The translations under genes were made by a program, and so were the position numbers. 64,000 nucleotides of DNA from Escherichia coli (GTDB taxonomy: Bacteria > Pseudomonadota > Gammaproteobacteria > Enterobacterales > Enterobacteriaceae), in the NCBI RefSeq assembly GCF_003018115.1, contig NZ_CP027457.1; one strand, given 5' to 3'. Positions 30,993-32,096 of this stretch are shown here, one piece after another; positions within the stretch are counted from its first letter, which is position 1; each line of letters starts with the position of its first letter. The notes under the pieces are model-generated. The model was not told where the DNA came from and searched no databases. It worked only from the letters and a program-made list of their open reading frames with translations.

Positions 30993-32096
30993 GGTAAAGA
31001 AAAATACAAGCGGAATGTTTATAAAATGATGTTGGAATGTAAAAACGAGGACAACAAATCCGGAAACAAAAGCGATTATTTTAAGGTATTTAGCTGACTT
31101 TTCGCCCGGCAGATGAAGCTTGTACGAATGTTGGTGGCGACAAACTCGCTGCAGCGTGCCCCGAAGGGTTGAATTTTCAGTTAGTCGTTTCACAAAAGAA
31201 CGTTGTTTTTTGCTTATTAATAGATAGTGATAAGGTTGTGAATGAAATTATACCTCATCTCCTCATCGAATTTTTTGCCCACAACCTAAACAGGAGAAAA
31301 CGTGTATTTAAGTCTGGAATGAGCGATTTTTGATAGTGCCTAATTATCCCCCAAAATTATAATTCCCCTTATTATATTCCCAGTAATATCATTTTATGGC
31401 TAAAGCTATATACAACTCTAAATCACGATAAAACGAAGCAGGATGCGCATTAAAAAAGTCACACATAATAAAAATAGAAATCTTAACCAGAAGTAATAGA
31501 TCATCGTGAAAATCAATCACCAAAAACACCAACACACAAAAATCAATAAGTTAATAATTGTTCAGGACTTTTTGCTCACGATTTTTCTACTATGACATTA
31601 TCACAAACCCACTAACATGAATACAGAAAGAGAAGTAATAAGATGAGACGCCACTGCTTTCAGATGAACCCTGTAATTAGGGTCGAGAATATAGTTTATC
31701 CATTCCCCTATCGATAAATTAAAAAATTTGCGTATTAATTTTTCTCTGACTGAAGGCTAACGTCGAATTACCGACAAGATTCACGAGTGATTGTAACTAC
31801 GTACTTTATGAAACACAGGAAGAAATTATTATTTACCGCGATAGTTCAAGGCGTAAAAAAAATAATAATATTCATGAAACTCATCCCGATGGCAGCATTG
31901 TAAATTCGCCAATAACTGGCATTCCTCCTGCTTTTTACGGGTGTTTCCATTAACACCAGAATGAGCGGATTGTTTACTACTTCAAGAACGCATCCGAAGT
32001 ATACATCCTGGTGCGCAGACTGAATCGCCCGGAGCCATGCGGATGGCTACGACTTAATACGAATCATTAACCCTGTAAGGATACGGAGAGCATGAC

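Follow-up and report, generated by a model that had tools for sequence, protein, structure and literature searches.

What is the role of a long, AT-rich stretch of DNA that appears to lack genes and that precedes the gene for a repeat protein in some strains of Escherichia coli? The stretch occupies positions 31194–32096 of a 64,000-nucleotide segment of contig NZ_CP027457.1 (hereafter called the window), whose source is E. coli strain F9792 (100% identity). The genes in this part of the window are arranged in the order efeB–efeO–efeU (minus strand; efeU start at position 30915), an interval of 2,673 bp, putP (minus strand; stop at 33589), and putA. In the RefSeq annotation, the sole gene located in the efeU–putP interval codes for a hypothetical protein of 447 amino acids (32097–33440, plus strand). 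An earlier note on this DNA, based on inspection of the sequence, had pointed out that such DNA is typical of xenogeneic regions and that it might contain either a promoter or 5′ UTR serving the repeat-protein gene or a noncoding RNA. Herein, we examine the distribution, composition, variation, and transcription of the region and weigh several explanations for its existence.

The AT-Rich Tract and Its Gene Form an Accessory Insert

The efeU–putP interval is trimorphic in E. coli, being 219 bp long in strains A13 and DETEC-P881, 542 bp long in K-12, and 2,673 bp long in the window strain. All three forms have in common the efeU promoter (to approximately position 31043) and a GGGCAA...TTGCCC hairpin after putP. 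Sequence specific to the long form begins at approximately 31169 and ends somewhere within 33441–33588, and constitutes an insert of ~2.4 kb made up of the AT-rich tract and the gene. The right edge falls within the 3′ spacer that separates the gene from the convergent putP (33441–33588). This spacer carries hairpins at 33481–33504 and 33503–33554, and its GGGCAA...TTGCCC hairpin is similar to the one distal to putP in the 219-bp form and in K-12.

Two segments lie between efeU and the insert. The core efeU promoter region (30916–31043, minus strand) includes a Fur box at 30975–30993 that matches the consensus at 15 of 19 positions, a −10 element (GATAAT, 30987–30982), and a transcription start at 30974. 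It is 98% identical to K-12 and has only 4% polymorphic sites, and Megablast detects the initial ~125 bases of this interval in 5,418 of 5,426 genomes. Next is a variable ancestral spacer (31044–31168; GC 0.488), in which positions 31094–31167 align to part of the K-12 efeU–putP interval with ~75% identity (blastn, MAFFT). The insert-specific noncoding tract then spans 31169–32096, which corresponds to 928 bp in the window strain.

At a coverage threshold of at least 80% for the tract, 643 of the 5,426 complete E. coli genomes searched (~12%) carry the insert, in each case as one copy at the efeU–putP site. Carriers include O157:H7 strain Sakai, where the gene is called ECs1262, as well as EDL933, O145, and many non-STEC isolates from human, animal, and environmental sources. 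In Sakai, the gap between ECs1262 and efeU, tract included, corresponds to NC_002695.2 1323268–1324448. No copies of the tract were found in a phage collection and no true copies in a plasmid collection, where the matches were chromosomal or mis-assigned records. When 100,044 species representatives were scanned with a peptide pattern, the sole match was to a 2.8-kb contig of a metagenome-assembled genome labeled “Collinsella sp.” (JAIJJM010000433.1). This contig carries the efeU–putP insert, whose encoded protein shares 94% identity with the product of the 447-amino-acid gene, and it is almost certainly E. coli sequence that reflects binning contamination.

The gene itself (ECs1262, or EDL933_RS07105) is real and under purifying selection, with dN/dS values of 0.24–0.44 and dS values of 0.05–0.11. 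Its product has a PipB2-N-like domain and three repeats of 62–63 amino acids, the latter occupying residues 232–421 and modeled at pLDDT > 90. A single-sequence AlphaFold model of the 447-amino-acid protein was unusable (pLDDT 34). SET-domain proteins, the largest of which has 2,136 amino acids, are among the remote homologs of the repeats. The uncharacterized protein looks like an effector-type protein. Other E. coli carry an accessory paralog beside ygjK that is 513 amino acids long, has three tandem PipB2-N-like domains, and matches window positions 32350–32529 with 75% DNA identity. The DNA upstream of this paralog is unrelated to the tract and has 52% GC.

These data give mixed support to the earlier description of the region as xenogeneic. 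The accessory distribution (643 of 5,426 genomes, with K-12 lacking the insert) agrees with this description, but the composition of the gene does not, given its GC content of 0.495 and its GC3 of 0.545. Because the gene has an ordinary composition, the AT-richness is confined to the noncoding part of the insert, and it is by distribution that this DNA can be called foreign.

Another possibility is that the tract was left behind by a mobile element, such as an insertion sequence, a MITE, or a prophage end, that delivered the gene. The efeU–putP interval does vary among strains, occurring in three lengths. Furthermore, an imperfect inverted repeat of 18 nucleotides (31203–31220 and 33555–33572; 16 of 18 positions complementary) is located near both ends of the insert, ~35 bp inside its left edge and ~16 bp inside its right edge. 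However, the repeat is low-complexity, T/A-rich sequence that cannot be extended beyond 18 nucleotides, and its presence is probably due to chance. In addition, there is one copy per genome in 644 of 644 genomes, phage matches are absent and plasmid matches are the chromosomal or mis-assigned records noted above, and neither a transposase or integrase remnant nor a target-site duplication was detected. We consider an origin from a mobile element to be most unlikely indeed.

Composition and Reading Frames

The earlier note had described an AT-rich stretch of ~900 bp that is devoid of credible open reading frames (ORFs), and this description is borne out. The 903 bp at 31194–32096 have a GC content of 35.8% compared to 49.9% for the window as a whole, which places them at the 5th percentile among all 903-bp windows, and the longest wholly internal ORF is 48 amino acids. 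The AT-rich core extends from 31200 to 31900, with 30–37% GC per 100 bp, and the last ~200 bp before the 447-amino-acid gene (31900–32096) have 43–50% GC.

The intergenic regions of the window provide a second standard of comparison, for which we used the 36 annotated regions that are at least 50 bp in length. Of these, the complete intergenic region between efeU and the 447-amino-acid gene (30916–32096; 1,181 bp; GC 0.368) is the longest, followed by csgD–csgB (18471–19223) at 753 bp. Its GC content is the fourth lowest of the 36, for which the length-weighted mean is 0.429, and csgD–csgB lies below it at 0.335. The tract is strongly AT-rich compared to coding DNA but low-normal compared to intergenic DNA, and its oddity is its length. 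Thus, the concern that the base composition might prove ordinary on calculation is half justified, in that the value is low-normal for intergenic DNA but far below that of coding DNA. Other segments of the window with less than 40% GC, again determined by using 903-bp windows, are 17741–21664, 22431–23824, 24981–26224, 48551–50884, and 62681–63894. These segments take in the csgD–csgB region and the DUF2726/tRNA-Ser, yccE, and cspH–cspG areas.

The scarcity of reading frames does not require a separate explanation. The longest stop-free run in 31194–32096 is 67 codons, whereas first-order Markov simulations give 76 ± 17 open codons (P = 0.34) and a longest ORF of 64 ± 17 amino acids (P = 0.17). 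Because the ORF lengths match those of random sequence of the same composition, the term “ORF-free” conveys no signal beyond “AT-rich.” One ORF of 54 amino acids with a TTG start overlaps the left edge of this region. The left border at 31194 had originally been set by an ORF of 88 amino acids that abuts efeU (30927–31193, minus strand) and that is not annotated in RefSeq. This ORF is spurious, since it holds the efeU transcription start at 30974 and the Fur box and is disrupted by a 1-bp indel or frameshift in three alleles. A 48-amino-acid ORF on the opposite strand (30951–31097, plus strand) was once annotated in EDL933 as RS07110 and was later dropped.

It is nevertheless worth considering whether the tract conceals a small protein-coding gene missed by annotation or a recently formed pseudogene, such as a lost chaperone of the effector-like neighbor. 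Effector genes are often accompanied by an upstream chaperone gene. The tract also includes several ORFs of 31–54 amino acids, one of which (31808–31903) reads like a hydrophobic peptide. However, no candidate ORF has a Shine–Dalgarno sequence, their lengths are those expected at random, and every one of them is broken in some alleles by indels of 1, 2, or 11 bp. Indeed, the allele indels found in the tract, which are 1, 2, 4, and 11 bp in length, rule out a coding function. Searches with six-frame translations of the tract against Pfam and NCBIfam were empty at E ≤ 1, RefSeq annotates nothing under the tract in the ~10 genomes inspected, and a term search of the supplement of a ribosome-profiling paper on EDL933 gave no match in the tract. 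A hidden small gene therein seems highly unlikely.

Conservation Is Highest at the Two Ends of the Tract

Ten alleles of the tract were aligned, and conservation was assessed by using 9–10 of these. The resulting p-values should be taken as nominal, given the small number of alleles and their relatedness and recombination. Over the entire tract (31169–32096), 18.5% of the sites are polymorphic compared to 19.5% of the 4-fold degenerate sites of the ORF, and the divergence (K of 0.03–0.10) is similar to that of synonymous sites of the ORF. Within the tract, two blocks change more slowly. The proximal block, next to the gene (31901–32096, plus strand), has 8.2% polymorphic sites versus the 19.5% at 4-fold sites (nominal p = 0.001). 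The distal block, which adjoins the left junction of the insert (31169–31330), has 9.9% versus 19.5% (nominal p = 0.012) and is nearly invariant in several alleles. Across the center of the tract, polymorphism reaches 26–29%, and an A/C-rich portion (31431–31625) evolves fast, with 29% polymorphic sites versus 19.5% at 4-fold sites (nominal p = 0.025). This portion exists as two haplotypes that are up to ~15–19% apart and that form a mosaic in the alignment.

A Shine–Dalgarno sequence (GGAG, 32085–32088) is located eight nucleotides before the ATG at 32097, and both this sequence and the start codon are invariant in the ten alleles. The proximal block probably supplies the 447-amino-acid gene with its leader, an activator-dependent promoter, or both.

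One interpretation of this pattern is that the tract is functionless spacer, consisting of neutral DNA and possibly of decayed older cargo, that arrived with the gene without having been deleted yet and in which only a few dozen bases at the Shine–Dalgarno end matter. Several observations favor this view. Polymorphism and K equal the 4-fold and synonymous values of the ORF, which means that most of the tract may do nothing. The center even outpaces synonymous sites in its rate of change, the tract accommodates small indels, and no known type of element was detected in it. Moreover, in strain eco-241, an IS1 element replaces 31214–32097, which removes nearly the whole tract and the Shine–Dalgarno sequence along with the A of the ATG. 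The start codon is thereby turned into CTG, which RefSeq calls as the start. This natural knockout of the DNA upstream of the gene, tolerated in one strain, shows that the tract is dispensable. Other observations argue against a spacer devoid of function. With the exception of eco-241, the length of the tract is kept at 928–941 bp (643 of 644 genomes) despite divergence of up to ~10%, and the proximal and distal blocks show roughly half the polymorphism of 4-fold sites. Likewise, Pfam and NCBIfam reveal no detectable protein remnant of a decayed cargo. On balance, we regard a functionless spacer as possible but somewhat unlikely.

Transcription Starts and Promoter-Like Sequences

Transcription starts in EDL933 have been mapped by Cappable-seq under eight laboratory conditions (PMC10469882). 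We converted these sites to window positions by using ORF-based coordinates, where the window position equals 32097 + (1409552 − x) for EDL933 position x. Among the starts tabulated in that study, the efeU start (EDL933 1410675; window 30974, minus strand), located 59 nucleotides upstream of efeU, is reported for 8 of 8 conditions (PMC10469882). A “downstream” start inside the 447-amino-acid gene (1409435; 32214, plus strand) is reported for 2 of 8 conditions. Four antisense starts on the minus strand are also listed, at 1409154 (32495; 8 of 8 conditions), 1409452 (32197; 4 of 8), 1409454 (32195; 1 of 8), and 1409551 (32098; 4 of 8). The gene-associated and antisense start tables of the study list no plus-strand start at 31847–32096, which is the region up to 250 bp upstream of the gene, for any of the eight conditions (PMC10469882). 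The absence of a proximal start from these tables, when the efeU start is present in all eight conditions, fits a gene that is either silent or transcribed from a distal site.

A sigma-70 matrix of our own identifies sites at the efeU start, at the internal sense start, and at the antisense starts. The coincidence of these predictions with mapped starts validates both the coordinate conversion and the matrix. Just inside the gene is an antisense promoter-like site (32105–32133, minus strand; TTGCTG-17-GATATT; score 7.9) that matches the start at 32098, and transcripts from this start would run into the AT-rich tract toward efeU. A strong antisense promoter (32502–32531, minus strand; TTGACT-18-(TG)GACAAT) coincides exactly with the start at 32495 and likewise points toward the tract and efeU. 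An internal sense promoter (32178–32207, plus strand; TTGACG-18-AATTAT), invariant in ten alleles, corresponds to the start at 32214, and a transcript from there would miss the first 39 codons of the gene. Despite this internal promoter, the homology of the paralog upstream of Met48 argues that the annotated gene start is right.

The best promoter-like element directed toward the gene is located at 31330–31363 (plus strand), where TTGATA and TATAAT are 22 nucleotides apart and invariant in ten alleles. Workable pairings are TTGATA-17-AAAATT or GTGCCT-16-TATAAT, with matrix scores of 9.7–9.8. The predicted start would be at ~31365–31370, which would imply a leader of ~730 nucleotides. This is a prediction only, and the number of promoter-like sites in the tract (5 found) equals that expected in shuffled sequence (5.0). 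Neither a promoter scan nor our matrix revealed a convincing sigma-70 site in 31901–32096. The proposal that the tract provides a promoter or 5′ UTR for the repeat-protein gene is thus no more than plausible. It agrees with the Shine–Dalgarno sequence, the start codon, and the proximal 196 bp all varying less than 4-fold sites, but not with the lack of a listed start within 250 bp upstream.

The antisense starts raise the possibility that the tract encodes a noncoding RNA, which could be either a trans-acting sRNA or an antisense or read-through RNA that extends from 32098 or 32495 toward efeU. The starts at 32495, 32195/32197, and 32098 all point into the tract, each with a sigma-70-like site (PMC10469882), and we found no intrinsic terminator between these starts and the efeU promoter. 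Moreover, the O-islands of EHEC are rich in sRNAs (PMC8565820). However, such antisense starts are pervasive in the EDL933 data, for which 5,967 are reported (PMC10469882). A permissive Rfam scan of 30500–33800 yielded no match at E ≤ 1, and no intrinsic terminator-like site, with its hairpin and U-run, is present on either strand of 31194–32096. RNA-folding z-scores for 74 sliding windows covering both strands average 0, with −2.75 as the lowest value, and the fast-evolving center lacks a conserved seed-like block. The locus is absent from the supplement of an Hfq-CRAC study, and an RNase E-CLASH supplement includes nothing in the tract, with single hybrid reads only in the ECs1262 and efeU coding regions. 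Thus, the suggestion in the earlier note of a noncoding RNA gains no support, given the absence of an Rfam match, a terminator, and a structure signal, together with the rapid evolution of the center. We judge an RNA gene in the tract to be improbable.

We also considered two specific RNA candidates. The sRNA Esr41 was rejected for this locus because it lies in OI-43/SpLE1, between z1181 and z1182. A leader that functions as a riboswitch or thermometer was rejected as well, given the lack of an Rfam match and a helix pairing the Shine–Dalgarno sequence that is no stabler than in shuffled sequences. Specifically, in the minimum-free-energy fold the GGAG is paired only in a long-range helix whose stability is not above that of shuffles (z = −1.1), and the proximal 216 nucleotides show no structured leader (fold z = −1.1).

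A Probable Role as a Noncoding 5′ Flank Bound by H-NS

The composition of the core of the tract suggests a function that does not depend on encoded products. The core has 20 A/T tracts compared to 13.7 ± 3.2 expected, and TpA steps occur at 89 per kb compared to 48 per kb in the window. Furthermore, like targets of xenogeneic silencing, the region has a high AT content over a few hundred base pairs together with an accessory distribution. Based on this composition and on what is known about xenogeneic silencing, we predict that the core of the tract is likely a binding platform for H-NS.

Individual motifs provide a more varied picture. An exact match to the high-affinity consensus for H-NS, TCGATAAATT, is present at 31711–31720 (plus strand), and its probability of occurring by chance in such a 903-bp sequence is ~0.01. 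This exact sequence is found in only two of ten alleles, and O157 has ACGATAAATT; positions 31711–31720 are not a conserved element. Matches to the H-NS motif at 8 or more of 10 positions are not enriched in the tract, and phasing of its A-tracts at 10.5 bp, examined as a check on curvature, is not significant (P = 0.06). A search for H-NS occupancy or hns-mutant data on ECs1262 or the interval, Pch/H-NS ChIP supplements included, returned none.

Given these findings, the probable explanation in our view is that the tract is the noncoding 5′ flank of a one-gene accessory insert, combining a promoter/leader with a probable H-NS-bound spacer. The proximal ~200 bp would hold the leader, the ribosome-binding site, and regulatory sites of the 447-amino-acid gene. 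The AT-rich center of ~600 bp would be spacer DNA that changes at a roughly neutral rate and that likely serves as a platform for H-NS. In laboratory culture, binding of H-NS to this center may then silence the gene as well as stray promoters on either strand. The distal ~160 bp would make up a third, conserved part. The accessory distribution, the lack of coding function, the pattern of conservation, and the lack of a proximal start in the published tables are established by the data above, and from these we infer the occupancy by H-NS, the silencing, and where the real promoter lies. Because the gene itself is not AT-rich, the classical silencing of foreign AT-rich genes may not extend over it.

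A more elaborate scheme can also be envisioned, wherein the tract is a two-way module. Here, DNA nucleating H-NS would act as an insulator between the Fur-controlled efeU promoter and the candidate effector gene. Noncoding transcripts from constitutive antisense promoters (32495 and 32098) would cross the tract, such that transcription toward efeU is coupled to silencing of the effector gene. The true promoter of the gene would be located ~730 nucleotides upstream (~31365) and would produce an unusually long regulatory leader. We consider this combination to be quite improbable and retain the simpler 5′ flank with its probable H-NS-bound spacer as our preferred reading.

Taken alone, the tract matters little, as it is one more AT-rich noncoding flank of an accessory gene. 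Knowing its nature keeps one from taking it for an sRNA or a hidden gene. It is also the presumed control region of ECs1262, and as such is carried by O157:H7, O145, and ~12% of E. coli. If the protein does prove to be a secreted effector, the tract would be the place to study both its silencing and its activation. Finally, the 219-bp, 542-bp, and 2,673-bp forms together with the IS1 deletion make up a clean natural series that is suited to tests of what effect a long AT-rich insert beside the efeU promoter has on the regulation of iron transport.

Comparison with Known Systems

Three known systems resemble the tract to different extents. The O-island sRNAs of EHEC, as exemplified by Esr41, share with it a location in strain-specific intergenic DNA of O157:H7. 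However, Esr41 is a transcript of ~70 nucleotides that has a GC-rich terminator hairpin followed by poly-U, whereas the tract has no terminator, Rfam match, or structure signal.

The nearest analog in length and composition within the window is the csgD–csgB region, which likewise is long (753 bp) and very AT-rich (GC 0.335) and serves as a divergent regulatory region between two transcription units. The csg DNA belongs to the core genome, and many regulator sites have been mapped in it. In contrast, the tract between efeU and the ORF is accessory, is 1.6 times longer, and has a center that changes at or above the neutral rate.

A third comparison is to the AT-rich regulatory regions of acquired genes of Enterobacteriaceae that are silenced by H-NS, for example those of LEE1/ler, bgl, and proU. 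The tract is distinct from these in that its gene has the normal composition of E. coli, its motif is not conserved, it has no known counter-silencer site, and its binding by H-NS is only predicted. As in those systems, the DNA is accessory, and a long noncoding stretch rich in AT, A-tracts, and TpA steps precedes a strain-specific, effector-like gene. Also as in those systems, no proximal start is detected in laboratory media, and promoter-like sites occur on both strands.
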